Below, piece by piece: positions 8,201 through 61,607 of a stretch of DNA of 64,000 bases; the stretch's first letter is position 1, and each line of letters starts with the position of its first letter. This DNA comes from a virus, in IMG/VR virus record IMGVR_UViG_3300025832_000001. One strand, given 5' to 3'. The notes beneath the pieces were generated by a model that did not search any database, was not told the origin of the DNA, and saw only the letters and a program-made list of their open reading frames with translations. The position numbers and the translations under genes are program-made.

Positions 8201-11003
8201 TTTGACCCATGAATGGGATATAAATCTTACAACCAAATTAACTTTAAATTCTACTGGTCTAATAGCTGCTGATAATATAGATGCTTCAAGCTATTCAGGG
8301 CCTGGGCAAGGTTTAGATAATTTATTGCCTTTAGGGGTTTATTCTACAACGCCAGGCACGGCGGGTGTTTTAATAAAAACAAATATAGCATCAAATAATT
8401 ATGGTTTTATATTTGGAACTATTAATTTAGAACAGTTTAATTTTACAAGTGTACAAAGAATTCAACTTTCTGCTACAGTAGCAAGCAATGGAACTGTAGT
8501 AACCAAAGCCGCAACTTCTGATATTGCAATAACTATGAAACTGTTTCATGTAGGTGGATACTGGCATATACACTTGCCAACCGCGAGCACTTATGTTACA
8601 GCATCTGCTTATATATATACAGGAGCAGGTTATCAGGGCCAAGCAAAAGGATTTAACGAAGTTAACACTATAACGGTGAATCCTGTTCCTTCGGGAGCAA
8701 CAAGTTCTGTTGATATTGTTGCAGATGTTTATGTAACAACTGGTTCTGCTGGCGGATCGGGTCCATTTTTACCACTTTCAGCTGGGTCAAGTTATCCTTT
8801 GACTGGTACCTTGTATTTGGGTAACGTAGGGAGTGACCAAAAAATACAATTTCAAAGAACTGGGGGAAATGTTTATTCGATAGAGCATGACTCTGCGCAA
8901 TTATACTTTTACAACAGAACGACTACAGAATCTCCTTTAGTAATACAAAACGATGGAGATGTTCTAATGAATGCAGGCAACGTCGGGATCGGAACGACTG
9001 GGCCTTCTAAAAAATTAGAAGTTAATGGTAGCTTTAAATTAGGAACAAACGCTTATATTGAATATGGAGGTGTTTATCCTTATACTATAACGACTGCAAA
9101 TACAGCAGCTGTAGGTAATTTAGTTTTTTCCGCAGGTTTAGGAAGTGCTGCATATGAATCAAGAATAGATTTACAAGGGACTAACACAGCAGGCGTTGCT
9201 GGTATAACATTATCTACTGCATCAACTGCCAGAATGGTTGTAACTGCAGATGGAGATGTCGGTATCGGAACATCAACACCTAACGCTAAACTTGATATAC
9301 AAGGAACACAAGGTCAGTTATTCTCAGTTACAGATGATTTATCTGGTGAGATATTTGCAGTGGCAGATATATCTGGTGTACCTATAATGACAGTTAATTC
9401 AAGTGGTGTATCTTACTTTGACGGAAACGTCGGTATTGGAACGACTAACCCTGCTTCAACTTTAGAAATAGCAAAAAACGACCAAACAAATGGAGCAACA
9501 TTAAGTATTACTAATAGTTTTAATGGTAGTGATTGGAGTGCAGGAGACATTATAGGGGCAATTAATTTTAGAATGGATGACACTTCTAATGCTGAAAAGA
9601 TTAGGGGTCAAATAAAGGTTTTTGAAGATTCTGCAACCAGCTCTGCATACCCTCCATTTAATGCAATGTCTTTTTCTACAGCAAATGGTAGTTCTTTGAT
9701 AGAAAGAATGCGTATAAACAGTTCTGGAAACGTTGGTATAGGAACAGGTAGTGCTGTTTATGGAGATTTACATTTACAAGGTAGTCAGCAGGATATAGTA
9801 TTAACAAATAATGCTGCTGATGGAGCTGCTAATTCAACTATATCAAGGATTATAGGTCAAGCAAGAGGTTACTCCAATAATGGCTCCGCTATGCAGTCTA
9901 TTGATTTTGTAACAAATGCAACAACTTGGTATAAAGGGGATATAGTTTTTAAAACCAACAACACAGACGGGACTGATACAAGCGTTGCTGCTACTGAAAG
10001 AATGCGTATTGCATCAAATGGTAATGTTGGTGTTGGATTTACAAGTCCTGATTTATCTCCTTTGTCAAGTATGAAACTATCCGTTAATGGTAATGGTTAT
10101 TTTGCAGGCAACGTCGGGATCGGAGTTACTGGACCTCAATCAAAACTACATATAGAAACAGGTAGTGGAGGTACTTACATTCCAAACGCAAGTCACGATG
10201 ATGTGACTATTGAAGGTAGTGGAAATATTGGGTTACAATTATTTAGCCCTAATACTACTTACCAGTATATCGCTTTCGGCGATCCTGATAGTGTTAACGC
10301 AGGCTATATAAGGTATCACCACGGAACCAACAAAATGGTGCTTAGAACAAATGGGGGTGATCGGTTGCATATAGACTCTTCTGGTAACGTTGGTATTGGT
10401 CCTAGCACAACTAGTCCAGCGCATAAGCTAGAAGTTAGAGATGGAACTATTAGTGGGGAAATAGCTAAATTTTCTGCAATCGGTGCCACAGTTGTTATTG
10501 AATCATCTACAGCAGGTAATGCCAAGCTGTTTTTAAAACCAAATACTACTGGTTCAAAAAGAGGTGAATTTAGGGTTACAGACGCTAATGATTATGGTTT
10601 TTTATGGACAGCTGACACTAGCGCTAATGGAACTGCTTATATGGAATTAGAAGCAAGTTCTACTGGGGGTGGAGATTTAACAGTAAAAGGAGATGTAATA
10701 GCTTACGGCTCGCCTTCTGATAAAAAATATAAAGAAAACATTAAGCCAATTGAAAGCGCTTTAGATAAAGCAATGAAACTTCAAGGTGTTACATTTGATT
10801 GGAAAGACAGTGAGAGTATATTAGAAATAAAAAAAGATATAGGTTTTATAGCTCAAGATGTTCAAGAAGTGTTACCAGAACTAGTTAGAGAAAATAAAAA
10901 AGGAAATTTATCTTTAAGGTATCAAGGTATAACACCTATATTATTAGAAGCTATAAAAGAATTAAAAGCAGAAATAGAGGAACTTAAAAAACAAATTAAG
11001 TAA
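5238..11003 (+). CDS. Giant tail fibre/spike protein with C-terminal peptidase-S74 intramolecular chaperone domain
   Basis: 1921 aa with about 11 GNVGIG..P..KL.V units. The C-terminus from Ser codon 10716 reads SDKKYKENIKPIESALDKAMKLQGVTFDWKD...GFIAQDVQEVLPELV...LRYQGITPILLEAIKELKAEIEELKK. This matches the autoproteolytic chaperone domain of endosialidase-type fibres (S-D-x-x-x-K-x-N-I start, terminal coiled coil). Confidence 0.85.
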   Translation: MANEFKIKKGLIVTGASGGTVVDIQGSQGQLFSVTDDLSGSIFAVSDISGVPIFDVNSSGLSTFDGLVSGITPVNAANFVTKAYVDGSGGGTGPFLPLAGGTLTGTLISTENQGSASIYINSSRPSLGFTDTNSFPDPNDIYLIRGTSGAKLVFQFYDDSSSTATETFSIDPQGNSVFQNTLVAKGNITSQTTGGAGLNLRRDDTSISGTNTLGYILFQGDDPTDGTFNNGAAIFGKADGSWSSGAYPGQLLLQTRNTTGGLVTALTLAKDQNATFSTQAFATTATSSGDASSTLTTKGYVDGLITGATIYRGTWQAGISATSTGTTSSSTTLTVSAAILDAAGNTPVLVGAVVTGAGITGTVKVASVTSSTVYELDTAISATATAYIFSPIYGAPDLSGVTQTSGYYYICSEAGSATPNGAGTEPNTWDVGDWVIWNDDVGASGEWQKVDNSSVLSGVGTGQTVALWEGPSSVTDSETLGNSILTQQSDDEISILSTSATTGQLGKLTIYGYDDGDTNVKNLQLNVDNGGDSNIIASGPYLWLDSASYIASKKVHIFQQDIFMYNNNHIRFLDGPGDSWNDVLGVTSADIVQIGAIASFNTNLGEVAIYSNNTEAIRIDVDQNVGIGTASPDSPLEVQFTEATGTAKQMLHIDYNSTNNYGSGYLKISAGGSSQALTFIEQVTSGGNGLFGTYIDTNIINKGLSASAHGNINFVTGSSTSASSIVMTIGGGSQKGNVGIGTTLPGYKLDVAEKIRMVGGLKITPTTSNLYAEDGTLSYYSASNGVYLNGAGANGWLRLNASGVQNDQNSINIYGSAGNYMNFRTANSTRMIINSVGNVGINTTSPVVRLHVQGNNIATRTTTTAQSVLRLVRDVTDAAFPSTKDSAVDFMLSRQQSVNNNLPYTRLDFRLAGTTDSSTPSLDVMSLLYNGNVGIGTTNPQTNLVISNAAGGTGGVNLEIQPISTSVVQSYINRSVSPAVYIKNEQRALTHEWDINLTTKLTLNSTGLIAADNIDASSYSGPGQGLDNLLPLGVYSTTPGTAGVLIKTNIASNNYGFIFGTINLEQFNFTSVQRIQLSATVASNGTVVTKAATSDIAITMKLFHVGGYWHIHLPTASTYVTASAYIYTGAGYQGQAKGFNEVNTITVNPVPSGATSSVDIVADVYVTTGSAGGSGPFLPLSAGSSYPLTGTLYLGNVGSDQKIQFQRTGGNVYSIEHDSAQLYFYNRTTTESPLVIQNDGDVLMNAGNVGIGTTGPSKKLEVNGSFKLGTNAYIEYGGVYPYTITTANTAAVGNLVFSAGLGSAAYESRIDLQGTNTAGVAGITLSTASTARMVVTADGDVGIGTSTPNAKLDIQGTQGQLFSVTDDLSGEIFAVADISGVPIMTVNSSGVSYFDGNVGIGTTNPASTLEIAKNDQTNGATLSITNSFNGSDWSAGDIIGAINFRMDDTSNAEKIRGQIKVFEDSATSSAYPPFNAMSFSTANGSSLIERMRINSSGNVGIGTGSAVYGDLHLQGSQQDIVLTNNAADGAANSTISRIIGQARGYSNNGSAMQSIDFVTNATTWYKGDIVFKTNNTDGTDTSVAATERMRIASNGNVGVGFTSPDLSPLSSMKLSVNGNGYFAGNVGIGVTGPQSKLHIETGSGGTYIPNASHDDVTIEGSGNIGLQLFSPNTTYQYIAFGDPDSVNAGYIRYHHGTNKMVLRTNGGDRLHIDSSGNVGIGPSTTSPAHKLEVRDGTISGEIAKFSAIGATVVIESSTAGNAKLFLKPNTTGSKRGEFRVTDANDYGFLWTADTSANGTAYMELEASSTGGGDLTVKGDVIAYGSPSDKKYKENIKPIESALDKAMKLQGVTFDWKDSESILEIKKDIGFIAQDVQEVLPELVRENKKGNLSLRYQGITPILLEAIKELKAEIEELKKQIK

Positions 11004-13137: not shown

Positions 13138-14712
13138 ATGTCTGACAAAATAGTCAAAAACTTAAGCTTTGGTGACAAAGCTAAGTTTGAAGTATTTAAA
13201 GGAATAGAACAACTCACAAGTGCTGTTGGCTCCACATTAGGGGCCAGCGGTAAATGTGTGATAATGGAGGACAGTAACGGTGATCCTATAATAACAAAAG
13301 ATGGTGTTACAGTTGCTAATTCTATTATATTAAAAAATCCTATTCACAATATGGGTGCTACACTTTTAAAAGAAGCAGCACGTAAAACGGTAAAAGAAGC
13401 TGGAGATGGAACCACCACAGCAACAATATTAGCACACGCTATATTAGCTGAGGTTTATAACTCTAAGCAAAAAGATACTAGTATAAGAGTAACTAAACAA
13501 AACATCTTAGAAGCTGTTAATGACGTTATAAGTTATATAGATAAAAACAGTATTGAAGTGTCAGGTGACATGATAGATAATGTAGCAACTATATCAACTA
13601 ATAACGATAAAGAGTTAGGTAAGTTAATAGCTGATGCTTTTAGAGAGGTTGGCACAACGGGTGTTGTAACAATGGAAGCCTCTGAATCAGGTAACACGGA
13701 AGTTGAAATACTAGAAGGCGTTGAATATAATAGAGGTTATTCTCACGCAAACTTTACAACTAATAAAGAAAAGAAAACCGCTGAATTAGAAAATCCAGTT
13801 GTTTTAATAATGGAATCAAAAGTAGATTCAATAAGGCAAATACAATCAGTTTTAGAACATGTTATAAAAAATAATAAATCATTATTATTAATAGCTGAAA
13901 TAGAACCACCAGTGTTATCAGCTCTTATGATGAATAAAATGAAGGGTAATATAAAGCTTAATGTTATTGAGCCTCCTTCTTATGGTTTAAATAGAAAAAC
14001 AATACTAGATGATTTAGCTTTGCTAACAAATTCTACGATTGTAAATGAAGACCTAGGAGACGACTTAAGCGTTATAGACTTAGATTACTTAGGTCAATGC
14101 GTTAAAGCTTCTTCTGACAATGAAAGAACGATTATAACAGTAGATGATCTAAGTGACGAAGTGCTAGACATTATAAAAAGCATTAAAAAAGAATTAAAGC
14201 AGAAAAATAAACCACATACAATTATAAATCTAGAAAGAAGATTGGCTAGATTGTCAGCTAAAGTAGCTATAGTTAAAGTTGGTGCTAATTCTGATATTGA
14301 ATTAAAAGAAAAAACAGATAGAGTCGAAGACGCTATTTGCGCTACTAAAGCCGCAATAAAAGAAGGTATAGTACCAGGTGGAGGAATCGCCTTATTAAAC
14401 GCTTCAAATAATTTAAAATCTAAATCAATAGGCCAGCAGTGTTTATACAATGCTATAAAAGCTCCTTTTAATATGATACTAAGTAATGCAGGTTTGTCTT
14501 TAACTAAAAAACAAGATGATTATTTAGTTTCTAATGAAGGTTATGGTTTAGATGTGGTTACAGGAAATATGGTAAATATGGTAAAAGAAGGTATTATAGA
14601 CCCTTCTCTTGTTACTAAAAGTGCCCTTATAAATGCGGCTTCTGTAGCTACAACTATTATGTCAACCGATTGTGTAATCAATAACGTAAGAGTAGATGAA
14701 AGCGCTAGGTAG
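13138..14712 (+). CDS. groEL: GroEL-type (Cpn60) chaperonin
   Basis: 524 aa. N-terminus has KFG..A......GI..L..AV..TLG..G. The canonical nucleotide-binding block AGDGTTTATILA is at about nt 13399-13434. Also has IVPGGG and DPSLVT motifs. It lacks the GGM-repeat C-terminal tail. Confidence 0.9.
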   Translation: MSDKIVKNLSFGDKAKFEVFKGIEQLTSAVGSTLGASGKCVIMEDSNGDPIITKDGVTVANSIILKNPIHNMGATLLKEAARKTVKEAGDGTTTATILAHAILAEVYNSKQKDTSIRVTKQNILEAVNDVISYIDKNSIEVSGDMIDNVATISTNNDKELGKLIADAFREVGTTGVVTMEASESGNTEVEILEGVEYNRGYSHANFTTNKEKKTAELENPVVLIMESKVDSIRQIQSVLEHVIKNNKSLLLIAEIEPPVLSALMMNKMKGNIKLNVIEPPSYGLNRKTILDDLALLTNSTIVNEDLGDDLSVIDLDYLGQCVKASSDNERTIITVDDLSDEVLDIIKSIKKELKQKNKPHTIINLERRLARLSAKVAIVKVGANSDIELKEKTDRVEDAICATKAAIKEGIVPGGGIALLNASNNLKSKSIGQQCLYNAIKAPFNMILSNAGLSLTKKQDDYLVSNEGYGLDVVTGNMVNMVKEGIIDPSLVTKSALINAASVATTIMSTDCVINNVRVDESAR

Positions 14713-48727: not shown

Positions 48728-50425
48728 TTAGCCATCACACGCTAAACAATCTTCACTCATTGCTTGTTGTGCTATATCTCCACGAAGCACTGATTCAGTT
48801 CTAGTATAGTACAAGGTTTTAACACCTTTTTTCCATGCATCAAAATGAACCTTATTAATCCACTTAGGTGTTGCTGAACTAGGAAAAGCTAGATTTAAAC
48901 TAACTGATTGATCTATATACTGCTGTCTCAATCCTGCCTGTCTTATTAATTCTAATTGATTTATTTCTTTAAAAGTTTTAAACACTTCTTTCGTAGAGTC
49001 TTCTAAACCTTCTATGTCCTGAACAGAACCACCGTCTGCTAAAATTTTGTCCCATGTTTCTTTATTATTTATTTTAAGCTTTTTTAATTTTTTTTCTAAT
49101 GTCGGGTTTTTCCTAATGAAAGTCCCCTTCGCACTCTGCTCTGTAAAAACATTCGCAGCCCACGGCTCAATACCAGGCGAAACATTTCCACTAAGCTTAC
49201 TGTTGCTAACAGTAGGAGCAATAGCACGTAAATGAGTATTGCGCATACCAGTTCCAGCACACCACAAAGGTTCTCCATAAATTTCCGCCAAATCTCTAGA
49301 AGCCCTTTCGCTTTCAATTTTAATCTGACTAAAAATCTTCCTAGTTTCAAACTGAGATAATAACCCTTCGAAAGGTAATCCTTTCTCTTGTAAATAAGTA
49401 TGCCATCCCAATACTCCCAAGCCCAACGCTCTTCCTTTTTGAGCTGAGCGTACTGAATTCTCGAAGCCTCGTAATCCTTTAGCTCTTTGTATAAACTCTT
49501 CCATGACTCCATCAAGGAAATATATACTGTCGTAAATAAGGTTTGTATTTTTCCATTCATCATATTTAGCTAAATTTAAAGATGATAAACAACATACAAA
49601 ACTATGGTTTTCATCTGTGTGTAATGTTATTTCTGAACATATGTTAGTCATATGTACCTTTAATCCATTTTCTTTATATGCTGCTGGATTTGCTTTGTTA
49701 ACATTTCCCTTAAACATAATATACGGCTCTCCAGTTGCTTTTCGCTTTCTAAGTAATTTACCCCATCTAGCTCTAGCTTCTTTATCTCCTTGTTCAAGCT
49801 TACGCATAAATTTATCACCAACAATTGCGCACTGATGTAAGTTAAGCGACTGTCTGTTAACATCTCCTTTAGGTTCCCTGATTTCAAGCCACTCCTCGAA
49901 GTCATCATGTTCAATGTTGATATTAACTGAGGCAGCTCCACGACGGACACTCCCTTGATTAGTCGCAAGAATTGTTGAGTCATATATCTTGCAGAAAGGT
50001 ACGACTCCATCTGATGTTCCATTACCTGTTATTTTAGTGCCGGCGGGTCTAATCATATTAACTCCGATACCAACTCCACCGCCATGCTTAGCGAGTAGCA
50101 TCATCTCTAAATTCTTTTGTCCTATATCCTGTATACTGTCAGCTACATCAATACCAAAACAACTAATAGGTAAGCCACGATCAGTCCCGGTATTAGACAA
50201 TACAGGGCTAGCAAGGCAAAGCCAGCCATTCCAAATATAATCAAAAAACGTTTCGGCCATTTCTGGTTTATATAACCTACGAGCAACTGTTTTAGCGACT
50301 CGTATGTATGCTTCTCTAGGTGTTTCTCCGTCAAATAAATATCCCCCGGATATAGTCTTCTTGTATACGTCCGTATTACCCCACGCAGGGTAATCTTCTC
50401 CTTTTTTCCATTCATTGTTCCACAT
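48728..50425 (-). CDS. nrdA: Ribonucleotide reductase class I large subunit, short form lacking an ATP-cone
   Basis: 565 aa. Has PISCFG, NICSEITL (N-x-C-x-E), CCLSSLNL, TLYYTR (Tyr-Tyr pair) and a C-terminal CLACDG cysteine pair. Confidence 0.9.
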   Translation of the reverse strand: MWNNEWKKGEDYPAWGNTDVYKKTISGGYLFDGETPREAYIRVAKTVARRLYKPEMAETFFDYIWNGWLCLASPVLSNTGTDRGLPISCFGIDVADSIQDIGQKNLEMMLLAKHGGGVGIGVNMIRPAGTKITGNGTSDGVVPFCKIYDSTILATNQGSVRRGAASVNINIEHDDFEEWLEIREPKGDVNRQSLNLHQCAIVGDKFMRKLEQGDKEARARWGKLLRKRKATGEPYIMFKGNVNKANPAAYKENGLKVHMTNICSEITLHTDENHSFVCCLSSLNLAKYDEWKNTNLIYDSIYFLDGVMEEFIQRAKGLRGFENSVRSAQKGRALGLGVLGWHTYLQEKGLPFEGLLSQFETRKIFSQIKIESERASRDLAEIYGEPLWCAGTGMRNTHLRAIAPTVSNSKLSGNVSPGIEPWAANVFTEQSAKGTFIRKNPTLEKKLKKLKINNKETWDKILADGGSVQDIEGLEDSTKEVFKTFKEINQLELIRQAGLRQQYIDQSVSLNLAFPSSATPKWINKVHFDAWKKGVKTLYYTRTESVLRGDIAQQAMSEDCLACDG

Positions 50426-50426
50426 A

Positions 50427-50591
50427 TTATCCTATAAAATGTTTTGTCCAGGCTATTAGCCCATTAAAATTTAAAGCAACTAAATTCCATTGCTTTCTTG
50501 ATGCTGTCTGAATCATTACACATATAAAACCTAGTATATAAAGTTTAGGTTCTAATGTCCATTGTGCTGCTATTAAAAAACCAGCACCCAT
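50427..50591 (-). CDS. Small two-TM membrane protein (54 aa from Met35; the track start at 50693 is less likely)
   Basis: MGAGFLIAAQWTLEPKLYILGFICVMIQTASRKQWNLVALNFNGLIAWTKHFIG. The 50591 start avoids a 92-nt overlap with the upstream gene. Its stop lies 1 nt before the nrdA ATG. Confidence 0.4.
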   Translation of the reverse strand: MGAGFLIAAQWTLEPKLYILGFICVMIQTASRKQWNLVALNFNGLIAWTKHFIG

Positions 50592-50601
50592 ATACCCTGC
50601 T

Positions 50602-50832
50602 CTAGTCGCTAGTCGCTTCCAAGGGCTCAGCCTTTTCTGTCTTACTAGACTTCTCAATAACGTCGGCTTTAAGTTTTTTAATCGCTTCATCATAATCTGG
50701 CATATTTTTAATTGTTTCTAAAGTTCCTATAGCTAGATCTTTTATTTGAGCTAGCTCATTAATCATATGTTGAGACACTCTTGTAAGTGCCTCAACTTTG
50801 TTTTTCATTTCTATTAATTTATTTTCTTTCAT
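50602..50832 (-). CDS. Hypothetical coiled-coil protein
   Basis: 76 aa. ATGA-type overlap with the upstream gene. Confidence 0.4.
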   Translation of the reverse strand: MKENKLIEMKNKVEALTRVSQHMINELAQIKDLAIGTLETIKNMPDYDEAIKKLKADVIEKSSKTEKAEPLEATSD

Positions 50833-51386
50833 ATATATTTATAAAACATTACAATAACTATTCTTTGGTTTTTATATTCATTAGGATATTTACTATGAAA
50901 ATATTCACAAGGATAAGACAATAGTCTGTTATCCTTATAACCAATAACACTGCTTAGTTTCCATTTAGTTTTGTCATTTGAATCTTCTTTAAGTATTCTG
51001 TTAAACTCATCACTACTAGATTTAATATACGTGTGACCATAATTTTCATGTTCCCAAAAAGCTGTACCATGTAACTTATCTTCATTTGCTTTAACATATA
51101 AAACTATAGCTCTATCGGGCTGATCACCATTTATAATAGTATCATTATGTATACGCCAATCATTATCTTGACCTAACCTAGCTTCTCTAGCAAAAGATAA
51201 TATATTTTTTATTTTTCTACCTTCTATCTTTTCTAGTTTATCTACTATAAAATTATTAAATTCACTAGGTAGATCTTTAGTCCAAAAAGATTTATCTGGA
51301 TATTTTATCTCTTCAAATTCATCAACATAGTTTAGCAAAGCTTTATATAGATTTTTTGGTAAAAAATTATCTTGTATATAAATCAT
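50829..51386 (-). CDS. 2OG-Fe(II) oxygenase superfamily protein
   Basis: 185 aa. WRIHNDT supplies H-x-D. The distal FHSKYPNEYKNQRIVIVMF supplies H...P.......R.V.V.F, the usual second His and 2OG-binding Arg spacing. Confidence 0.5.
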   Translation of the reverse strand: MIYIQDNFLPKNLYKALLNYVDEFEEIKYPDKSFWTKDLPSEFNNFIVDKLEKIEGRKIKNILSFAREARLGQDNDWRIHNDTIINGDQPDRAIVLYVKANEDKLHGTAFWEHENYGHTYIKSSSDEFNRILKEDSNDKTKWKLSSVIGYKDNRLLSYPCEYFHSKYPNEYKNQRIVIVMFYKYI

Positions 51387-52355
51387 CTACCAAATATCTT
51401 CATAATCCTCATTTTCCCCAGCCTTTGAATAATCTGTCGGCCTAATAGCGAAGAAATCAGTATGAGTGACGCCCCCGGTAAGATGATAAAACCAATCCAA
51501 ATTAGACGCTGCTTTGTTGTCATACGCAAAATAGCTACCCAGGTCGACATAACCAAGTTCAACGAGTTTTTCATTTGTTCTCTTTTTTATAAAGTGTTTA
51601 AGATCATTAGATGATATACCTTCTATGTCACCCATTTCAAACATTTTATCTATATACTTTTCTTCTAGACCAACCATAGTTTCTGCAGCCTTTATAACAT
51701 CTTCTCTACATAAACTTAGTAATTGATTATCTTCTTCACACATGTGTTTAAACAATTGACAACCCATTTTACTGTGTAAACTTTCATCACGTACAGACCA
51801 TTTCATTTGTTGACCAATGCCTTTAAGTAAGTTACGCAGCTGAAATGAATACAGTACAGCAAAAGCAGAGTATAAACTAACTCCTTCAGCAAACGCACTA
51901 AACACAGCTAAAGACTTACCAATCTCAATTGTATTATCTCCAACATATGCTACTAAATTGTCAAATCTTTCTGCTGTAGCAGGTTCATGTAAAAACGCCT
52001 CGTAATCTTCTAGCTTTAATGTTTCATTTAAATAACTATAAGCTACAGCATGAACCGTCTCTTGTGATCCAAACATCATTGCCATTTGCTGGATCTCGTG
52101 TTTCGGAAACCATCCAACAACTTTCTGAGTCCAATAATCGGACACGGCGCATTCTGTTTGAGCGAACCCAAGTAGAATGTTTCCGACGAGGTTTTTTTCT
52201 TTTTCATTAAGTTTTTCATTCCAATCTTTTATATCACTTTGCATCGATATCTCGGTATGTAACCAAAATGCCTGTGCTTGCTTTAACCAACCCTCAGTAT
52301 AATACTCAGGATATTCAAACGGTTTGTACGCTACGCGCTCATCAAATAATCCCAT
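51387..52355 (-). CDS. nrdB: Ribonucleotide reductase class I small subunit
   Basis: 322 aa. SQETVHAVAYSY gives E-x-x-H-x-x-x-Y (radical Tyr). Also has FAEGVSLY, VRDESLHSKM (E-x-x-H) and an acidic C-terminus ENEDYEDIW. Confidence 0.9.
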   Translation of the reverse strand: MGLFDERVAYKPFEYPEYYTEGWLKQAQAFWLHTEISMQSDIKDWNEKLNEKEKNLVGNILLGFAQTECAVSDYWTQKVVGWFPKHEIQQMAMMFGSQETVHAVAYSYLNETLKLEDYEAFLHEPATAERFDNLVAYVGDNTIEIGKSLAVFSAFAEGVSLYSAFAVLYSFQLRNLLKGIGQQMKWSVRDESLHSKMGCQLFKHMCEEDNQLLSLCREDVIKAAETMVGLEEKYIDKMFEMGDIEGISSNDLKHFIKKRTNEKLVELGYVDLGSYFAYDNKAASNLDWFYHLTGGVTHTDFFAIRPTDYSKAGENEDYEDIW

Positions 52356-52501: not shown

Positions 52502-52667
52502 ATACTTTTATTCCATATTTATTTTGTATCTCTACAAGCTCTTTGTAGATTATTTTATTTCTATTTTCAAAACTCCACTTCCACCATGTATCGATTTTTC
52601 TTTCAGCATACTTTTGTCTAGCTATTCTTTTAGCTTCGAAAGGATTAACCTTACTGTCTCGTCGCAT
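52491..52667 (-). CDS. Unlisted small ORF (58 aa)
   Basis: Hand translation: MRRDSKVNPFEAKRIARQKYAERKIDTWWKWSFENRNKIIYKELVEIQNKYGIKVYGK. Overlaps the next ORF's start by 11 nt and the upstream gene's end by 46 nt. With the 48-aa ORF it fills a gap that otherwise has no listed ORF. Confidence 0.3.
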   Translation of the reverse strand: MRRDSKVNPFEAKRIARQKYAERKIDTWWKWSFENRNKIIYKELVEIQNKYGIKVYGK

Positions 52668-53077
52668 TCTTTATGATTTTGTGGTTTATATAATGTAAGT
52701 GGTCCTAATCTTCTTTCGGTTATAAGCTTTTTAAATAACTTCCATCTTAATGGAAATGATTCGTTAGCTCTACCTTTAGTTTCGATTATAAAACCCTTAC
52801 CTACAAAGTCAGGTGTATATTTTATATTCAGTATCTTTTTATTACCTCTGTTTTTGTATTCTCCTTTACCATTACTACATCTTTCATATGCCTCAAAAGG
52901 AAAATCAAATGCTTCTGACAATTCAAAAGTCTGACCTTCGTATAAAGCTGTTATCTTAGCTTTACGTAATGCCATATACATATAACGTTCTAAACCAGAC
53001 GCGAAGTTGATCCCATCATATGAGATCTTCTTCGACTGAACTGGTCCCTTTTTTCTTTTATAAGATTTCTTCTTCAT
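52622..53077 (-). CDS. T7 endonuclease I-like Holliday junction resolvase
   Basis: 151 aa. FASGLERYMYMALRKAKITALYE and KYTPDFVGKGFIIETKG parallel T7 gp3 FRSGLEDKVSKQLESKGIKFEYE and TYTPDFLLPNGIFVETKG (T7 sequence recalled from memory). Confidence 0.7.
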   Translation of the reverse strand: MKKKSYKRKKGPVQSKKISYDGINFASGLERYMYMALRKAKITALYEGQTFELSEAFDFPFEAYERCSNGKGEYKNRGNKKILNIKYTPDFVGKGFIIETKGRANESFPLRWKLFKKLITERRLGPLTLYKPQNHKECDETVRLILSKLKE

Positions 53078-53369
53078 TTACTTCTATATGATAATGCTCT
53101 CCATCGTTACCGTTTTGACCTATAATATTTATACGGTTCAACATAGCTTCTTCTATCTCATCTCTCAAACAATGTTTAGCTGATTCAAGATACAGTATTG
53201 CATCCATTAGTTCTTCTTGTACATCAATAATAAATCTATTGAGATCCTTCTTTTGACCTTCTATTTCTTGCATCATTGTAGCTCCATATTTCTTTTGACC
53301 TATTAAGCTACGTTCGTCCATCTTCCTTAGTACGTTTTGTACTATCTTGTCTTTAGTTTTAATCTGCAT
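53058..53369 (-). CDS. Small all-alpha NTP pyrophosphohydrolase-like protein
   Basis: 103 aa. GQKKYG followed by DVQEELMDAILYL gives an E-E-x-x-D metal-binding motif of MazG/HisE/dimeric-dUTPase type. Confidence 0.4.
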   Translation of the reverse strand: MQIKTKDKIVQNVLRKMDERSLIGQKKYGATMMQEIEGQKKDLNRFIIDVQEELMDAILYLESAKHCLRDEIEEAMLNRINIIGQNGNDGEHYHIEVNEEEIL

Positions 53370-54135
53370 CTTTTACGAATGTTCCGTTAATCATTTTACC
53401 TGTTCTACCTGCTATAACTTTATAAGCTTCATCAATACAATATTCTATATCATATCCTTCTAGGTGAGCTAAATTAGTTAATACAACAACTATATCACCT
53501 ATAGCATCTATTATTTCTGGTTTATCATTTTTAAGTAATGCTTTAGCAAGCTCACCAGCTTCTTCTTGTAATTTAACATATTGTGTATGTGAATTACCTT
53601 CGTTATATAAGCCTCTTGTAGCTGCCCAGTTACGTATTAAATCAAATCTTTCACAGTCTTTATTGTTTTTTAAACAACTTTCTACATTGTCTTTTGGATT
53701 AAAGAAAGCTTCATAAAAAGCTTTGTTGTAGATATAACATCTATCTTTATTGTACATTGATGTCTTAACATTTGCCATTATCCATCTTGTATTCTCTTTT
53801 GTTATTTTAAACTGGCCGAATTCTGTATTCCAAGTTAAACCTAGATTATCCATTAGTCTTCCTTTTAATTTACTAGTCGGACAGGGAAATGTTGAGGTTT
53901 GTTCTGTTGCGTTTATTTTCATTTTATTAAATAAGTTTTTATATAATTTTCTATCGACCTTATAGCCGTAAGACTTTTGAAGTTCTATTTCACGGTCTGA
54001 TATATAATCTATATCTTCTGACTGTTCAAGAACTTCATACTCATTCTCCTTATAGCCTTGTATAAGGGAAACTCTACTACTAAGATCACGTGTAACACCG
54101 ATCTTTTTACCTGGTATGTGGTATAAATAATACAT
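53359..54135 (-). CDS. MazG-type nucleotide pyrophosphohydrolase with an N-terminal extension (weak GIY-YIG-like start)
   Basis: 258 aa. The C-terminal ~95 aa read KLQEEAGELAKAL....IIDAIGDIVVVLTNLAHLEGYD...AYKVIAGRTGKMINGTFVK, a classic MazG core (EExxE, DxxGD). The N-terminus YYLYHIPGKKIGVTRDLSSR recalls GIY-(x)n-YIG-x-T-x-x-L-x-x-R. Confidence 0.65.
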   Translation of the reverse strand: MYYLYHIPGKKIGVTRDLSSRVSLIQGYKENEYEVLEQSEDIDYISDREIELQKSYGYKVDRKLYKNLFNKMKINATEQTSTFPCPTSKLKGRLMDNLGLTWNTEFGQFKITKENTRWIMANVKTSMYNKDRCYIYNKAFYEAFFNPKDNVESCLKNNKDCERFDLIRNWAATRGLYNEGNSHTQYVKLQEEAGELAKALLKNDKPEIIDAIGDIVVVLTNLAHLEGYDIEYCIDEAYKVIAGRTGKMINGTFVKDAD

Positions 54136-54143
54136 AATTTATC

Positions 54144-54785
54144 TTAAAGTTTATTATTATATAAATGCATATTATGTGCGTGATGATAATACCATCCGAC
54201 GTCTATAGACAGTCTGTCTGCAATCATTTTTTGTAACGATGAAAATTGATACTGATCATTACAGAAACCGTACCAGATGTCATTAGAACGCATATAAACA
54301 GACATACATAATTTATTATTAATTATTGTAAATTGTATTGCATATGTGCATGGGGTATCTTTACTGTATTTATTATACTCTTTGCAGTCGTATATACTTA
54401 TAGCGGCGTGTCTAGTATCAGGATTATCTTTTAACTTAGCTATAACATAATCAATTTGATTATTACGCTGCCATTGATAACCATAATTACTATTTACATT
54501 ACCATTACTATCAGCCATACGTTCCCATATAGGTGGTATCTTACCATATAATTGACCTAACTTAATTATATTAGGATCACCGGATAAATACCATTGCCAT
54601 TCAGCTTCAGCATACTCAAGACTCCACTTACGTTCTCTGTTTTTAATATGATTATCAAGTGGATCTTCTATAGTAAAACCAACGTTAAATAAAGCTTTAG
54701 TATCACCAAAGTCTATACCTTCAACTCGTAATTCATGTAGTATACAGTTGAATGCTTCGTTTGCATGTAAAAATTTAGTTCGCAT
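54144..54785 (-). CDS. Thymidylate-synthase-superfamily pyrimidine C5 transferase, dCMP hydroxymethylase-like
   Basis: 213 aa from MRTKF (the track start at 54842 would overlap the upstream gene by 68 nt). Catalytic Cys in DTPCTYAIQF (codon 54348-50). Has YMRSND and GFCND (Asp codon 54255-57) where ThyA has QRSxD and GLPFN. The EWQWY, NSNYGYQW and NPDTR blocks resemble T4 gp42 as I recall it. The protein ends 4 residues after HLYNN. Confidence 0.65.
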   Translation of the reverse strand: MRTKFLHANEAFNCILHELRVEGIDFGDTKALFNVGFTIEDPLDNHIKNRERKWSLEYAEAEWQWYLSGDPNIIKLGQLYGKIPPIWERMADSNGNVNSNYGYQWQRNNQIDYVIAKLKDNPDTRHAAISIYDCKEYNKYSKDTPCTYAIQFTIINNKLCMSVYMRSNDIWYGFCNDQYQFSSLQKMIADRLSIDVGWYYHHAHNMHLYNNKL

Positions 54786-55026
54786 ATTTTTTATAATAAT
54801 ATTTATAGTATTCAAATATTTTCTCCCATAATTCTTTTTCATTAAAAAATTTAGGGGATCTGTTTACTTTTCCATTTATCTCTATATCTATATACCATGA
54901 TACAAAGTTTTCTTTACAATAAGGTGATATATATATTCCATTATTTATACACCACCTGTATGCCTCGAAATCTTTTTTATCATAAGAGTATATTTCTTTT
55001 TGTTTCTTTTTTCTCATTATTCCCAA
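54775..55026 (-). CDS. Hypothetical protein
   Basis: 83 aa ORF overlapping the primase-helicase 3' end by 10 nt. Confidence 0.4.
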   Translation of the reverse strand: MGIMRKKKQKEIYSYDKKDFEAYRWCINNGIYISPYCKENFVSWYIDIEINGKVNRSPKFFNEKELWEKIFEYYKYYYKKYAN

Positions 55027-56735
55027 GGCATAGGATCATTATCACTTATTGTTTCGTGCGGTATAAAACAACCTGATTTTGGCTCCCATTTAAAATGTGC
55101 TTCAGCTCCGTTTTCACCAAGATTTTGAAATTTAACTTTTAGCACCTTGGCTTTAACAGTTTTTTGTTCATAATTTCTATGAACCAATATACCATGATAA
55201 CTAGCATCATACCATTCGCCACCACCCTTTATATTATACATGGTTGGTTCTTCCATTTTACCATCTTTATCTTTGTACATTTTAGTTGGGTGTGCAACAA
55301 CAAACACTAATACATCATACTTCTTAGCAAAAACTTCAATTTTAGTTAGATATTCCATTGTGTAGCGATTAACGTCTTCTGTTTTAGAATCAACATCTCT
55401 AACTTTATTAAAAGGGTCAATGACTAAACATTTAATACCTTTACGTTTCACTAACTCTGCACCTTTACGTAATACAGATTCTAATGTATAACGCTCCATA
55501 TCAATATGAAAATAATTACTATTACAATGGTCTGCTATTTGATTCCATCTATCACCACCAATATCATCTCTAGTAGGCATTCCTTCCCACGTTTTACGCA
55601 TTAACTTGTGAGCATGTAAATACGTTGGCGCATTCTCTGGCGAAGCAAAAGCCGTCTTCCAACCGTAGTTACGATTATACCCGACAACCATTTGGTCAAC
55701 GAAGTCTGATTTACCTGAACTAGGGATACCAGTGACAGTAATAAATTGACCGGTGTAAGTAGAAAATATGTCATCAAAATTCTCAAGGCCAACTTGATAT
55801 CCTTTCTTAAAGCCATTACGAACAAAGTCAGTAACTTCATCTTCAATATCTCTGAATGTCGTAACATTTTCAAGTGGTACGGGTCTCGCTCCGGTAATAC
55901 GCTGAACCAGCTTTTGTTTTCCATATTTTAATAAGTATTCATTCGCATCTTTACAGTCATCAAAAGACGCTAAGTAACAAACTTCAGCTCCAAGTCTACG
56001 GACTAATTCTGATTGTAATGCTTGCCCTGCTTCGTCTGAATCAACTGCTAGTATTATTTTTTCTTTGTCTTCAAAATAGTCTATACAATTATCAAGATAA
56101 TCTAGATTATTAGAATTTAATGTAGCACCGTTAGGTACAGATATACTATTAGGTATACCAGCCTCGTGTAATGCTAACACATCCATCTCTCCTTCTGTTA
56201 TAATACAGTATTCATAACCTACAATACTATTAATATTATAAAATACTTTTTCAGCTCCTTTGTATAATTTAAAATTCTTACGACCATCTCTGTATTTAAC
56301 ATTTATAAGTTGATCGCCCATAAAGTAATTAAACTTTATAGTATTCTCGGTCCTACCGGTTTGCGGCATATACTCAGCACCCTCATCGACATTTAAGTCG
56401 ACAAGAGTTTGAGCTGATATACCTCTTGTTTCAAACCATTTAATTACTTTATCACTTAAAAACTCTGGTTTTTCAGGATCAGCTTTAACAACTGGTCTTA
56501 CATATTCTTTTTCACTAGCACCTTTACGTTGATAAGTGTGTAACTGAAATGAGGTGTTACAATTGTGACAAGTACCGAGACCCCGTTCCCAATCATAAGA
56601 CGCACATTTCGCTTTTTGATTCTTGGGTTTTCTATCGTGAGAACAAAGAGGGCATATACCCTGCTTTTTTCCCTCTTCAAGCTTATGTTGATTGAATTCA
56701 TCAATCAAAAATCCATTGATCTCTGTTGTCTGCAT
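55017..56735 (-). CDS. Bifunctional primase-helicase (T7 gp4-like)
   Basis: 572 aa. Zn finger CPLCSH...CHNC. TOPRIM blocks IITEGEMDVLALHEAG and AVDSDEAGQ. DnaB-type Walker A VTGIPSSGKSDF and Walker B KCLVIDPF. Confidence 0.85.
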   Translation of the reverse strand: MQTTEINGFLIDEFNQHKLEEGKKQGICPLCSHDRKPKNQKAKCASYDWERGLGTCHNCNTSFQLHTYQRKGASEKEYVRPVVKADPEKPEFLSDKVIKWFETRGISAQTLVDLNVDEGAEYMPQTGRTENTIKFNYFMGDQLINVKYRDGRKNFKLYKGAEKVFYNINSIVGYEYCIITEGEMDVLALHEAGIPNSISVPNGATLNSNNLDYLDNCIDYFEDKEKIILAVDSDEAGQALQSELVRRLGAEVCYLASFDDCKDANEYLLKYGKQKLVQRITGARPVPLENVTTFRDIEDEVTDFVRNGFKKGYQVGLENFDDIFSTYTGQFITVTGIPSSGKSDFVDQMVVGYNRNYGWKTAFASPENAPTYLHAHKLMRKTWEGMPTRDDIGGDRWNQIADHCNSNYFHIDMERYTLESVLRKGAELVKRKGIKCLVIDPFNKVRDVDSKTEDVNRYTMEYLTKIEVFAKKYDVLVFVVAHPTKMYKDKDGKMEEPTMYNIKGGGEWYDASYHGILVHRNYEQKTVKAKVLKVKFQNLGENGAEAHFKWEPKSGCFIPHETISDNDPMPWE

Positions 56736-58579: not shown

Positions 58580-59335
58580 CTAAAGATAGTCAATCACTTG
58601 TGAGTGATCTACACTGTCAATTAATTTTTGTACTGCTTGTTTTTTTATTTCAGAAACTCTCACATAATCACTTACTCCTTTTATATTTAACAATACTGCT
58701 ATTTGCTTAGCCGAGTGTTTATCACAATCAAGCCCGTAAGATAATCTAAGAACTTCGTATTCTTGTTCGTTTAAATGTTTTTTAAGTAATCCTTGTAAAT
58801 ATATATTTAGTAAATTTATATTGTAAGGTTCTGAGTTGTCTGGTAACTGTTGCACCATTGACTCACCTTCTTCATTTAGTGGTTGAGCGTCTATAGATAA
58901 AAATTTAGACATAAAAAACATCTCAACCATTTTTTTGTTTTGAGGATTATTTCTTATTTCATTCATCTTGTGCTCAGGTATTCTCATATTACCGCTGTGC
59001 ATATCTATTCTGCGTCTAATAGATCCTTTTATTCTTTTGCTAAAAAAGCTTTTTAAGGTTTTTTCTTGATCTTCAGATTTAGATAACATTTCCCAATCTA
59101 GTTTATCTACAGCTCTAGTTAATGCTTCATTGCCTATTTGCAGTAAATCTAATATAGATAATACTCCTGAAGCTTGTTGAGTTGTTGAGAATTTTCTGGC
59201 TAAGTTTTCTACTAATGGCATAAACTTAACTATAAGTTCATCTCTAGTGTACTCGTCCCAAAACAATCCTTCAGGCATAGAAGCTTTTATATCTTCTTTA
59301 TACCTAATATAGTTTTGTACATTATATTTCTTCAT
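58580..59335 (-). CDS. Sigma-70 family RNA polymerase sigma factor
   Basis: 251 aa. Region-2-like LDLLQIGNEALTRAVDKLDW. Region-4 HTH LNEQEYEVLRLSYGL...SAKQIAVLLNIKGVSDYVRVSEIKKQAVQKL. Confidence 0.65.
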   Translation of the reverse strand: MKKYNVQNYIRYKEDIKASMPEGLFWDEYTRDELIVKFMPLVENLARKFSTTQQASGVLSILDLLQIGNEALTRAVDKLDWEMLSKSEDQEKTLKSFFSKRIKGSIRRRIDMHSGNMRIPEHKMNEIRNNPQNKKMVEMFFMSKFLSIDAQPLNEEGESMVQQLPDNSEPYNINLLNIYLQGLLKKHLNEQEYEVLRLSYGLDCDKHSAKQIAVLLNIKGVSDYVRVSEIKKQAVQKLIDSVDHSQVIDYL

Positions 59336-60773: not shown

Positions 60774-61607
60774 TTACTCATAATTACGTATACATTTAAA
60801 TAGTGGGTGTCTATAGCTATTTGCTTTAGTTCGCTGGAAATAAGTAAAGGTAGCACGCTTGCCAATATAAAAATCAACGTTCTTAAGCATATTAGCTAAA
60901 TCCTTGTAGGAATAACCTTTACCTGGTGGACAACCAAACTGTATACCTTCGTCATCTATCATTATGAATTTGCCAAGTGTGCCTGTCCTTTTACCTTTAC
61001 CCGCTACATAACCAACAATAGTTGCTTCTGTATCACTAAAGTCTTTAAATTTCATTAAGTCGTAAGACCTACCGTGTTTGTATAGACCATCTAGCCTTAT
61101 AATACTACCTTCGTAACCTTGATCTAAGAAATCAACGTGAAGATCTCGAGCGTAATTATAACTATCAACAAGCTTCGCGGGTACATACTTGATTTGAGCA
61201 TCATATATAGTTGATGTTACAAGCTGTTGCATACGAGTTTTATAGCTGTCATACATGACACCGTCAAAGTAATCGTACACGTGGAATTGCACAAGATGTT
61301 GAGCATCTAATCTATCATCTGCGGTAGGTTTTTGCTTACGAACTAATGATATAATTTTTTCGAAATCATTTTTAAGCTTGTGATTATACAACTCACCGTC
61401 GAGTATTACATCTGGATTTTGCTTAAAAAATGATATAAGTGCTAACTCAATATGAGCTAGATTTTTAAATTGTTTGCCGGTACGAGAAAACGCTCCGTCT
61501 TTTGTAAACAGACAACGAACTCCATCCAACTTAGGTTGTATGTATACCGGTTGAGCCCAATCAACTCGATTGTCATCGAACTTGTGGGCTAACATTGGTT
61601 TTTGCAT
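60774..61607 (-). CDS. lig: ATP-dependent DNA ligase
   Basis: 277 aa. Motif I QPKLDGVRC (K-x-D-G adenylation lysine). Motif III DGELY. Motif IV EGSIIR. Motif V LMKFK. Confidence 0.9.
   Translation of the reverse strand: MQKPMLAHKFDDNRVDWAQPVYIQPKLDGVRCLFTKDGAFSRTGKQFKNLAHIELALISFFKQNPDVILDGELYNHKLKNDFEKIISLVRKQKPTADDRLDAQHLVQFHVYDYFDGVMYDSYKTRMQQLVTSTIYDAQIKYVPAKLVDSYNYARDLHVDFLDQGYEGSIIRLDGLYKHGRSYDLMKFKDFSDTEATIVGYVAGKGKRTGTLGKFIMIDDEGIQFGCPPGKGYSYKDLANMLKNVDFYIGKRATFTYFQRTKANSYRHPLFKCIRNYE

Follow-up and report, generated by a model that had tools for sequence, protein, structure and literature searches.

A predicted T4 gp42-type dCMP hydroxymethylase encoded beside a MazG fusion protein: a candidate cytosine-modification cassette in an environmental phage genome

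Gene content of the cassette

We analyzed a stretch of 64,000 nucleotides (nt) from the IMG/VR virus record IMGVR_UViG_3300025832_000001, hereafter the window, in which three adjacent genes encode a thymidylate synthase (TS)-like enzyme, a protein with a MazG domain and a conserved protein of 103 amino acids (aa). An original prediction, made by reading the sequence alone, had proposed that these genes form a pathway for modified cytosine, with a ThyA-superfamily enzyme acting on deoxycytidine monophosphate (dCMP) and two nucleoside triphosphate (NTP) pyrophosphohydrolases. The genes and domains of the cassette are as follows.

54144..54785, minus strand: TS-fold enzyme, predicted dCMP C5-hydroxymethylase, 213 aa (Pfam, PDB, AlphaFold2 model and residue signature)
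53359-54135, minus strand: MazG fusion protein, 258 aa, with a C-terminal MazG domain
53680..54135, minus strand: N-terminal domain of the MazG fusion, ~150 aa, no family match
53359..53679, minus strand: C-terminal part (residues ~153-258) of the 258-aa protein, an all-alpha NTP pyrophosphohydrolase domain of the MazG type (Pfam, PHROGs, PDB profile)
53058..53369, minus strand: third cassette gene, for a conserved protein of 103 aa that has a DxxEExxD motif (PHROGs of unknown function only)

The mechanically called open reading frame (ORF) of the TS-like gene runs to 54842. Its start is more likely the Met at 54785, since most homologues are 213 aa long and since with this start the gene overlaps its upstream neighbor by 11 nt, an arrangement also seen in related contigs. 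All motifs that had been quoted for the three proteins are present in the translations: DTPCTY, YMRSNDIWYGFCND, AEAEWQWY, NSNYGYQW, NPDTR and HLYNNKL in the TS-like ORF, and QEEAGELAKA, IIDAIGD and QEELMD in the next two. The strings that had been given for T4 gp42 (RELEWY, NSNYGWAIW, NPDSR and MRSNDVVFGFRND) likewise occur in the real T4 sequence.

A thymidylate synthase fold with a dCMP-type active site

The 213-aa protein has the fold of thymidylate synthase and is homologous to it. It matched Pfam PF00303 (Thymidylat_synt) at 1.9e-27 as well as four PHROGs annotated 'thymidylate synthase', and its best sequence matches in the PDB were the CMP hydroxymethylase MilA (4e-22), a bacterial TS (2.6e-19) and the T4 dCMP hydroxymethylase (7.6e-19). 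An AlphaFold2 (AF2) model built on an alignment of 43 homologues reached a pLDDT of 88.6 and a pTM of 0.85. In a Foldseek search with this model, MilA came first (TMq 0.85, E 3e-17), followed by E. coli TS and T4 dCMP hydroxymethylase (E 3e-17 to 6e-15 across the three); the flavin-dependent dCMP monooxygenase 9iqc, a protein of 234 aa, was also near (TMq 0.83, TMt 0.76). The proposed membership in the ThyA superfamily is borne out by these matches. The source databases call the protein 'thymidylate synthase', and the ThyA equivalog models of NCBIfam gave it at most 82 bits, with cut-offs of 108-576 bits. Overall, the protein is about as similar to E. coli ThyA (28% identity) as to T4 gp42 (27%), which does not tell the subfamilies apart, and the subfamily assignment was therefore based on residues with roles known from experiments.

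Residue positions are given in E. coli ThyA numbering, and were obtained from an ungapped HMMER alignment and from MAFFT. The replacement Asn177Asp turns TS from deoxyuridine monophosphate (dUMP) to dCMP (PMC8670742, PMC13326640). The HMMER alignment to a bacterial TS set YMRSNDIWYGFCND opposite YQRSADVFLGVPFN, with the Asp on E. coli Asn177, and the MAFFT alignment with E. coli ThyA, T4 gp42 and others placed it at Asn177 as well. The specificity position had thus been identified correctly. Counted from the Met at 54785, this Asp is residue 177 (codon 54255-54257) and the catalytic Cys is residue 146 (codon 54348-54350), in agreement with the codons originally assigned to them.

The active-site signature of the window enzyme consists of Tyr94, Asp143, Cys146, Thr147, Arg166, Ser167, Asn168, Asp169, Asp177, His207 and Tyr209, and is identical to that of T4 gp42 at all scored positions (11/11). 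E. coli ThyA departs from it at Leu143, His147 and Asn177; the dUMP hydroxymethylase of CBA120 at Asn177; and the 5-hydroxy-dCMP synthase RB69 gp48 at Glu143 and Asn169. The catalytic set Cys146, Glu62, Tyr101, Arg166, His207 and Tyr209 aligns with Cys146 (T4 Cys148), Glu58, Tyr94, Arg166, His207 and Tyr209, and is invariant in the homologues. To survey conservation, we used the 121 nearest cluster representatives at 50% identity, each of at least 190 aa, and a separate set of 43 close homologues. Asp177 and Asp169 were found in 121/121 representatives and Asp143 in 119/121, and D143, C146, T147, R166, S167, D169, D177 and H207 were invariant in the 43 close homologues.

Three further positions bear on substrate and product. 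A bulky Leu143 keeps water out of the active site and is associated with methylation, whereas Asp or Glu at this position goes with hydroxymethylation (PMC13326640). Asp169Asn is the mark of flavin-dependent 5-hydroxy-dCMP synthases, and is found in every homologue that was experimentally shown to make 5-hydroxy-dCMP (PMC13326640). Ser167/Arg126 mark deoxyribose substrates, as opposed to Ala176/Lys133 in the ribo-specific MilA (PMC5175136). In the window enzyme, Ser167 aligns with MilA Ala176 and Arg125 with MilA Lys133, a deoxyribose-type pair which indicates that the predicted substrate is a deoxyribonucleotide.

The protein ends four residues after HLY, i.e., two after HLYNN, and not four after HLYNN, as had been stated; the missing ThyA tail that had been noted is, however, confirmed. 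Six residues follow His207 in the window protein, compared with 30 in T4 gp42, 57 in E. coli ThyA and 14 in RB69 gp48. Since the protein stops six residues past His207, the C-terminal lid that covers the folate in ThyA is absent. The active site of the T4 dCMP hydroxymethylase has been described as more open (PMC5175136). Judged by these residues, the TS-like protein is very probably a dCMP C5-hydroxymethylase of the T4 gp42 type, in both its substrate and its product. The original prediction had left a 5-methyl or a 5-hydroxymethyl product open; the residues favor the hydroxymethyl product and make the methyl product less favored, a preference that follows from the published Leu143 correlation.

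The MazG fusion protein and its 103-aa partner

The gene that follows the TS-like gene encodes a genuine MazG/PRA-PH domain, which is confined to the C-terminal ~105 residues (about 153-258) of the 258-aa protein. In Pfam, this domain matched PRA-PH with 27.6 bits (cut-off 21.3) and MazG with 25.3 bits (cut-off 22). The protein also matched phrog_1992 and phrog_715, both annotated as MazG-like pyrophosphatases, and a profile search of the PDB with the domain found 1vmg (1.1e-6). The metal-binding motifs EExxE and ExxD, which read QEEAGELAKA and EIIDAIGD, are invariant among the homologues. A viral MazG can favor dCTP and dGTP (PMC6850273). We consider this domain a candidate dCTP/dCDP pyrophosphatase, with about an even chance that it acts as a dCTPase.

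The N-terminal part of the fusion (residues 1-150) had no Pfam match even at an E-value of 10. AF2 was confident only for residues 1-60, which were modeled as beta-beta-alpha-beta-alpha, and Foldseek found nothing for this domain; the model of the full 258-aa protein had a pLDDT of 49.9, and its Foldseek matches are meaningless. The N-terminus reads YYLYHIPGKKIGVTRDLSSRV...DREIELQ, a pattern that recalls the core of GIY-YIG nucleases. In T4, host DNA that is unmodified is broken down by EndoII, which is itself a GIY-YIG enzyme. The N-terminal domain was considered as such a nuclease on the basis of the YxY...IG.T..L..R pattern and its topology; there was no Pfam match, and hhalign against T4 SegF gave a probability of 0.2%. 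The likeness is a motif-level resemblance only.

The 103-aa protein carries the motif QEELMD within DxxEExxD, and had been proposed as the second pyrophosphohydrolase of the cassette. It had no match in Pfam (E up to 10), in NCBIfam or in the PDB, by sequence and by profile, and its PHROG matches were all to families of unknown function. A comparison with MazG by hhalign gave a probability of 0.1%. With larger alignments, of 67 and 74 sequences, the two proteins aligned co-linearly, at a probability of 1.2% and a P of 0.043, which is non-significant. All comparisons of the 103-aa protein as a second MazG, in Pfam, NCBIfam, the PDB and hhalign, thus failed. As none of its similarities to MazG is significant, the cassette has one supported pyrophosphohydrolase, the MazG core, and the proposal of a second is unsupported.

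Conserved linkage in related viral contigs

A scan of IMG/VR with an alignment of nine sequences found at least 590 relatives; protein matches number in the thousands and include Tara samples. We examined the best 80 loci, which are 67-98% identical and all belong to one broad lineage. In every one of the 80 loci that has downstream sequence, a MazG gene lies directly 3' of the TS gene. MazG is fused to the N-terminal domain in 73/80 loci, and stands alone (~104 aa) in 5/80, with a 4-nt overlap between its start and the TS stop. Next after MazG comes the 103-aa gene, in 69/80 loci. Near-identical metagenomic contigs of 62-70 kb show the same order of the three genes (TS, MazG fusion, 103-aa protein).

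Linkage in distant clades was sampled in three GenBank phages. All three have an Asp177 TS homologue, with a gene for either an NTP pyrophosphatase or a dUTPase close to the TS gene, and in one of them, Enterococcus phage VPE25, an annotated beta-glucosyltransferase gene also adjoins it.

Accessory genes located up to 8 kb from the cassette in the 80 relatives encode JmjC/cupin proteins, a pyridoxal phosphate (PLP)-dependent enzyme, a KDO-8-phosphate-synthase-like protein, a cytidylyltransferase, a metallophosphoesterase and a 5'-3' exonuclease. In one sub-lineage (L077:7108-8965, and also L058, L060, L082, L092 and L093), the gene of a 297-aa PLP-dependent enzyme of the PALP family overlaps the TS start, and a stand-alone 104-aa MazG gene overlaps the TS stop. 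PLP enzymes participate in known pyrimidine hypermodification pathways, and this sub-lineage may decorate 5-hydroxymethylcytosine (5hmC) further. A DAHP_synth_1 gene (KDO-8-phosphate-synthase-like; e.g., L067:15176-15955) and a CTP_transf_3 cytidylyltransferase gene (e.g., L084:11611-12285) each occur within 8 kb of the cassette in five related contigs; these sugar-nucleotide genes could serve DNA glycosylation or remodeling of the host envelope.

Comparison with known systems

T4 gp42 (EC 2.1.2.8; PDB 1B5E, 6A9A) resembles the window enzyme in its TS fold, in its active-site residues (11/11), in lacking the ThyA lid and in being encoded amid genes for replication and nucleotide metabolism. 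It differs in sequence (27% identity), in length (246 aa versus 213 aa) and in the 30 residues, instead of six, that follow His207; in addition, its second phosphate-binding Arg is His126 in the window enzyme. T4 also has the dCTPase gp56, the deoxynucleoside monophosphate (dNMP) kinase gp1, its own polymerase and glucosyltransferases, of which the last three were not found here. Of the elements of the T4 pathway, a phage kinase and a glycosyltransferase have no recognizable counterpart here.

MilA, the CMP 5-hydroxymethylase of Streptomyces rimofaciens (PDB 5B6D, 5JNH), is the best PDB match in both sequence and structure, and like the window enzyme it has Asp at the Asn177 and Leu143 positions. 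It differs in having Ala176/Lys133, which confer ribose preference, in place of Ser167/Arg125, and in an extra C-terminal domain of five helices. The 5-hydroxy-dCMP synthases RB69 gp48, DLP3 gp80 and HY126 (PDB 9IQC) share a short TS fold, the dCMP substrate, Asp177 and an acidic residue 143, and are a good structural match. They carry D169N and bind flavin, whereas the window enzyme keeps Asp169.

In the MetaGPA survey of viral contigs (Yang et al., eLife 2021, PMC8670742), no domain was more strongly associated with cytosine-modified contigs than Thymidylat_synt, and the two residue positions with the highest scores were Asp177 and 147. In that survey, PRA-PH and TS occur together on modified contigs, and an association with modification was likewise seen for DNA ligase domains. 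An Asp177 Thymidylat_synt domain, PRA-PH and an ATP-dependent DNA ligase are all present in the window too, which in contrast to the MetaGPA contigs has no carbamoyltransferase or dCMP deaminase gene.

The closest cultured phages are the Bacteroides phages BF503P2 and BF486P2, whose TS homologues are 44% identical over 92% of the query and have the same signature and a short C-terminus. Their host phylum, Bacteroidota, is the phylum inferred for the window phage. They differ in having two TS paralogues and a dUTPase instead of the MazG fusion. In BF503P2 (L001:5124-5930 and 8004-8684), the two Asp177 TS paralogues lie 2 kb apart with the dUTPase between them, and both are annotated dCMP hydroxymethyltransferase. 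No experimental report on the DNA composition of BF503P2 or BF486P2 was found, and a search of the literature on DNA modification in phages of Flavobacteriia or Bacteroides yielded nothing usable.

A proposed pathway to 5-hydroxymethylcytosine

The fold, the homology, every diagnostic residue and the conserved gene linkage come directly from the computations described above. Herein, we describe the pathway that they suggest. Ribonucleotide reductase (RNR) would supply dCDP and hence dCTP. MazG, in what is its most likely job, would split dCTP into dCMP and pyrophosphate, and would thereby both remove a competitor and feed the hydroxymethylase. As in homologous enzymes, Cys146 would attack C6 of dCMP, while Asp177 would select and protonate the cytosine ring. 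The methylene group of methylenetetrahydrofolate would then pass to C5 of dCMP. The exocyclic methylene would be resolved by water and not by hydride, because the active site is open (Asp in place of Leu143 and no C-terminal lid), and the products would be 5-hydroxymethyl-dCMP (hm-dCMP) and tetrahydrofolate. More speculatively, host CMP/dCMP kinase and nucleoside diphosphate kinase, or an unrecognized phage protein, would convert hm-dCMP to hm-dCTP, which the host replisome would incorporate after priming by the phage primase-helicase. In this way 5hmC, perhaps with further modification, would be present in the phage DNA as a shield against host nucleases. The last steps are assigned to host enzymes or an unrecognized phage protein because no phage kinase or polymerase was found. 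A related TS homologue that was expressed alone in E. coli gave only a trace, yet a detectable one, of modified base in DNA (PMC13326640), and host kinases can therefore carry some flux.

Overall, we judge it slightly better than an even chance that a folate-dependent dCMP hydroxymethylase of the T4 gp42 type, together with the MazG cassette, produces 5hmC in the phage DNA. Actual replacement of C in virion DNA has, in our estimate, a chance between even and modestly favorable. A cytosine-modification pathway of a known kind is thus credible but unproven.

Several observations weigh against this reading, and they concern the steps on either side of the hydroxymethylase as well as the enzyme itself. 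In T4, the use of hm-dCMP depends on the gp1 kinase. A dNMP kinase was looked for and not found in three places: the window (by Walker A motif, PHROGs and Pfam), the ~5 kb of the genome outside it, and the 8 kb around the gene in the 80 relatives; the sole Walker A motif in the window is that of the primase-helicase. The same three places yielded no DNA polymerase or glycosyltransferase either. The original prediction had seen no kinase or glycosyltransferase in the window; this was right, and the same holds for the remaining part of the genome. The missing dNMP kinase weakens the step from nucleotide to modified DNA, and is the main weakness of the proposal that the DNA is modified. With regard to the MazG step, a profile comparison with the T4 dCTPase gp56 detected no similarity (probability 1.6%), the same type of MazG is common in phages without known modification, such as Staphylococcus phage K, and the substrate preference of a MazG protein is not readable from its sequence.

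As for the hydroxymethylase, its C-terminus after His207 is shorter than in any characterized member of the family, just 8/121 representatives have 12 or fewer residues there, and C-terminal truncations of MilA were insoluble (PMC5175136). The closest homologues in cultured phages are only 44% identical, and their label 'dCMP hydroxymethyltransferase' was not traced to an experiment. Finally, some palindromes are depleted in the window: CATG occurs 95 times versus 162 expected (Markov model, z -6.3), GGATCC twice versus 10.3 expected and GGTACC three times versus 11.6 expected, while GATC, TCGA and AGCT are not depleted. This depletion sits, if weakly, at odds with full protection of every C-containing site.

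Alternative explanations

Three alternatives concern the reaction of the enzyme. A dCMP methyltransferase, similar to that of XP12, would make 5-methyl-dCMP and place 5-methylcytosine instead of 5hmC in DNA. Asp177 by itself specifies cytosine only, and N177D mutants of true ThyA produce 5-methyl-dCMP (PMC8670742). Three features stand against methylation: the Leu143 position is occupied by Asp, which correlates there with hydroxymethylation (PMC13326640), and not by a bulky hydrophobic side chain; Thr takes the place of His147, as in T4 gp42; and the C-terminal segment with which ThyA shuts its active site for hydride transfer is completely absent. We consider this alternative improbable. Another C5 chemistry on dCMP, such as the flavin-dependent 5-hydroxylation of RB69 gp48 or an undescribed transfer, is quite improbable. 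The short C-terminus may relate to such a chemistry, as RB69 gp48 ends 14 residues after the His and 9iqc is both a good structural match (TMq 0.83, TMt 0.76) and similarly short (234 aa), but the diagnostic D169N is absent, Asp169 being invariant here and in 121/121 neighbors. It is highly improbable that the protein supplies nucleotides of the thymidine type, be it as an ordinary thymidylate synthase or as a dUMP hydroxymethylase, even though the source databases name it a thymidylate synthase and its identity to E. coli ThyA (28%) is not below that to T4 gp42 (27%). It has Asp177, Asp143 and Thr147 where Asn, Leu and His would be expected, has no C-terminal tail and scores at most 82 bits against ThyA equivalog cut-offs of 108-576, and the uracil-specific enzymes of E. 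coli (ThyA) and CBA120 carry Asn177.

A fourth alternative accepts that hm-dCMP is made, or dCMP bound, and holds that little of it is put into DNA: the TS-MazG pair would manipulate or drain the host dCTP pool, to the advantage of an AT-rich genome (33% GC), or would provide a modified nucleotide for a use other than DNA. Neither the genome nor the surroundings of the gene in relatives yielded a dNMP kinase, polymerase or downstream modifying enzyme, the MazG of cyanophages has been proposed to hydrolyze dGTP and dCTP simply for the recycling of nucleotides from a GC-rich host (PMC6850273), MilA and BcmA use the cytosine-type TS fold outside DNA metabolism, and the depletion of CATG and some 6-mers suggests ongoing restriction pressure. 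Drainage, however, needs no hydroxymethylase whose catalytic residues are all invariant across hundreds of variants. Moreover, Asp177 TS homologues are statistically linked to modified-cytosine DNA in viromes, the lone related TS homologue gave detectable modified base in E. coli, and Ser167/Arg125 point to a deoxyribonucleotide substrate. We consider this fourth alternative rather unlikely.

Hydroxymethylation of dCMP for incorporation into DNA thus remains the reading that we prefer, and a stronger version of it can be formulated. In this version, an abundant lineage of marine phages of the Flavobacteriia type replaces cytosine with 5hmC or a derivative by means of a minimal cassette of three genes, of which the first encodes a truncated hydroxymethylase, without a kinase or polymerase of its own, and the N-terminal domain of the MazG fusion and/or the 103-aa protein adds a new activity that completes the pathway. 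This activity could be, for example, a non-P-loop hm-dCMP kinase, a subunit that sets pyrophosphatase specificity or a discriminator against unmodified DNA. We regard this version as unlikely.

If the preferred reading is true, a widespread group of marine phages has hydroxymethylated cytosine, which bears on which host defenses (restriction, CRISPR, glycosylases) work on these phages and would alter the behavior of their DNA in library preparation and in enzymatic or bisulfite-type assays. It would also mean that modification can run on host kinases and a host polymerase, and that a 213-aa enzyme is a minimal hydroxymethylase of the TS fold. The occurrence of an Asp177 TS with MazG/PRA-PH on environmental phage genomes has already been described (MetaGPA, eLife 2021). 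The peculiarities of the present case are modest: the C-terminus is shorter than in any characterized family member, MazG is fused to a novel domain and accompanied by a conserved 103-aa partner, and no phage polymerase or kinase is recognizable. Since T4 and the MetaGPA survey have already established the principle, the gain is incremental unless the two proteins of unknown function have new activities.

Genomic context and host

The cassette is part of a tightly packed early/replication operon between a primase-helicase and class I RNR. The neighboring features are as follows.

60774..61607, minus strand: ATP-dependent DNA ligase (Pfam DNA_ligase_A_M 1.4e-13, DNA_ligase_OB_2 3.1e-8)
55017-56735: primase-helicase, upstream of the cassette
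54775..55026, minus strand: 83-aa ORF directly upstream of the TS gene, position conserved in related contigs
52622..53077, minus strand: DUF1064 protein, predicted PD-(D/E)XK-type endonuclease/resolvase (Pfam DUF1064 6.9e-8; phrog_190 Holliday junction resolvase 3e-11)
48728..52355, minus strand: class I RNR block, with alpha at 48728-50425, beta at 51387-52355, the two separated by small ORFs and by an ORF for a possible oxygenase of 185 aa

On its upstream side, the cassette is flanked by the 83-aa ORF, which has no family match in Pfam, PHROGs or NCBIfam, by the primase-helicase, and by genes for an Erf-like annealing protein, a DUF3799 nuclease and the ATP-dependent DNA ligase. The DUF1064 nuclease gene and then the RNR alpha and beta genes lie downstream. 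The 83-aa ORF overlaps the TS start by 11 nt, the gap between the TS and MazG-fusion genes is 8 nt, and the DUF1064 gene overlaps the 103-aa gene by 20 nt. Because of these overlaps and this gap, the cassette genes would be co-transcribed, and the packing indicates that the DUF1064 gene belongs to the same transcription unit as the 103-aa gene. The class I RNR that had been noted nearby was confirmed: its alpha subunit (48728-50425) is NrdA-like (NF006577, 663 bits versus a cut-off of 620) and the ORF at 51387-52355 is NrdB, and in related contigs the Pfam families Ribonuc_red_lgN/lgC and Ribonuc_red_sm match.

Between the two RNR genes, the 185-aa ORF at 50829-51386 (minus strand) has one HxD motif (His80-Asn-Asp82), a weak match to DUF6445 (6e-4, below the cut-off) and a match to phrog_1644, and may encode an oxygenase of the 2-oxoglutarate/cupin type. 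JmjC and cupin genes are found in the same module of related contigs (L075:13165-13992 and L024:12905-13255). A sigma-factor-like protein is encoded at 58580-59335.

The genome of this lineage is ~69 kb long, so that ~5 kb fall outside the window; these contain tail-type and small early ORFs only. Among all substantial ORFs of the window, PHROGs and Pfam found no carbamoyltransferase, dCMP deaminase or dUTPase. The ~69-kb genome has no recognizable DNA polymerase, despite its primase-helicase, ligase, Erf-type recombinase and RNR.

A megablast search of a 4.2-kb region against GenBank phages returned no match, and the phage thus has no close cultured relative. The primase-helicase is nearest to homologues in Cellulophaga, Tenacibaculum and Flavobacterium phages (33-42% identity), and many homologues derive from Tara and other marine samples. 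Based on this kinship, the GC content of ~33% and the marine origin of the homologues, the phage probably infects marine Flavobacteriia.

The plus strand, from 1 to 48.5 kb, encodes virion proteins, terminase, portal and lysis proteins and a GroEL/GroES pair. The GroEL-like chaperonin lies amid the structural genes at 13138-14712 (plus strand; Cpn60_TCP1 1.1e-56, with a GDGTTT motif), and the co-chaperonin GroES was recognized by a PHROG match on the same strand. Three plus-strand proteins contain Laminin_G_3 domains, and one matches the C-terminal domain of the Crassvirus muzzle protein (PF25729, 6.2e-8).

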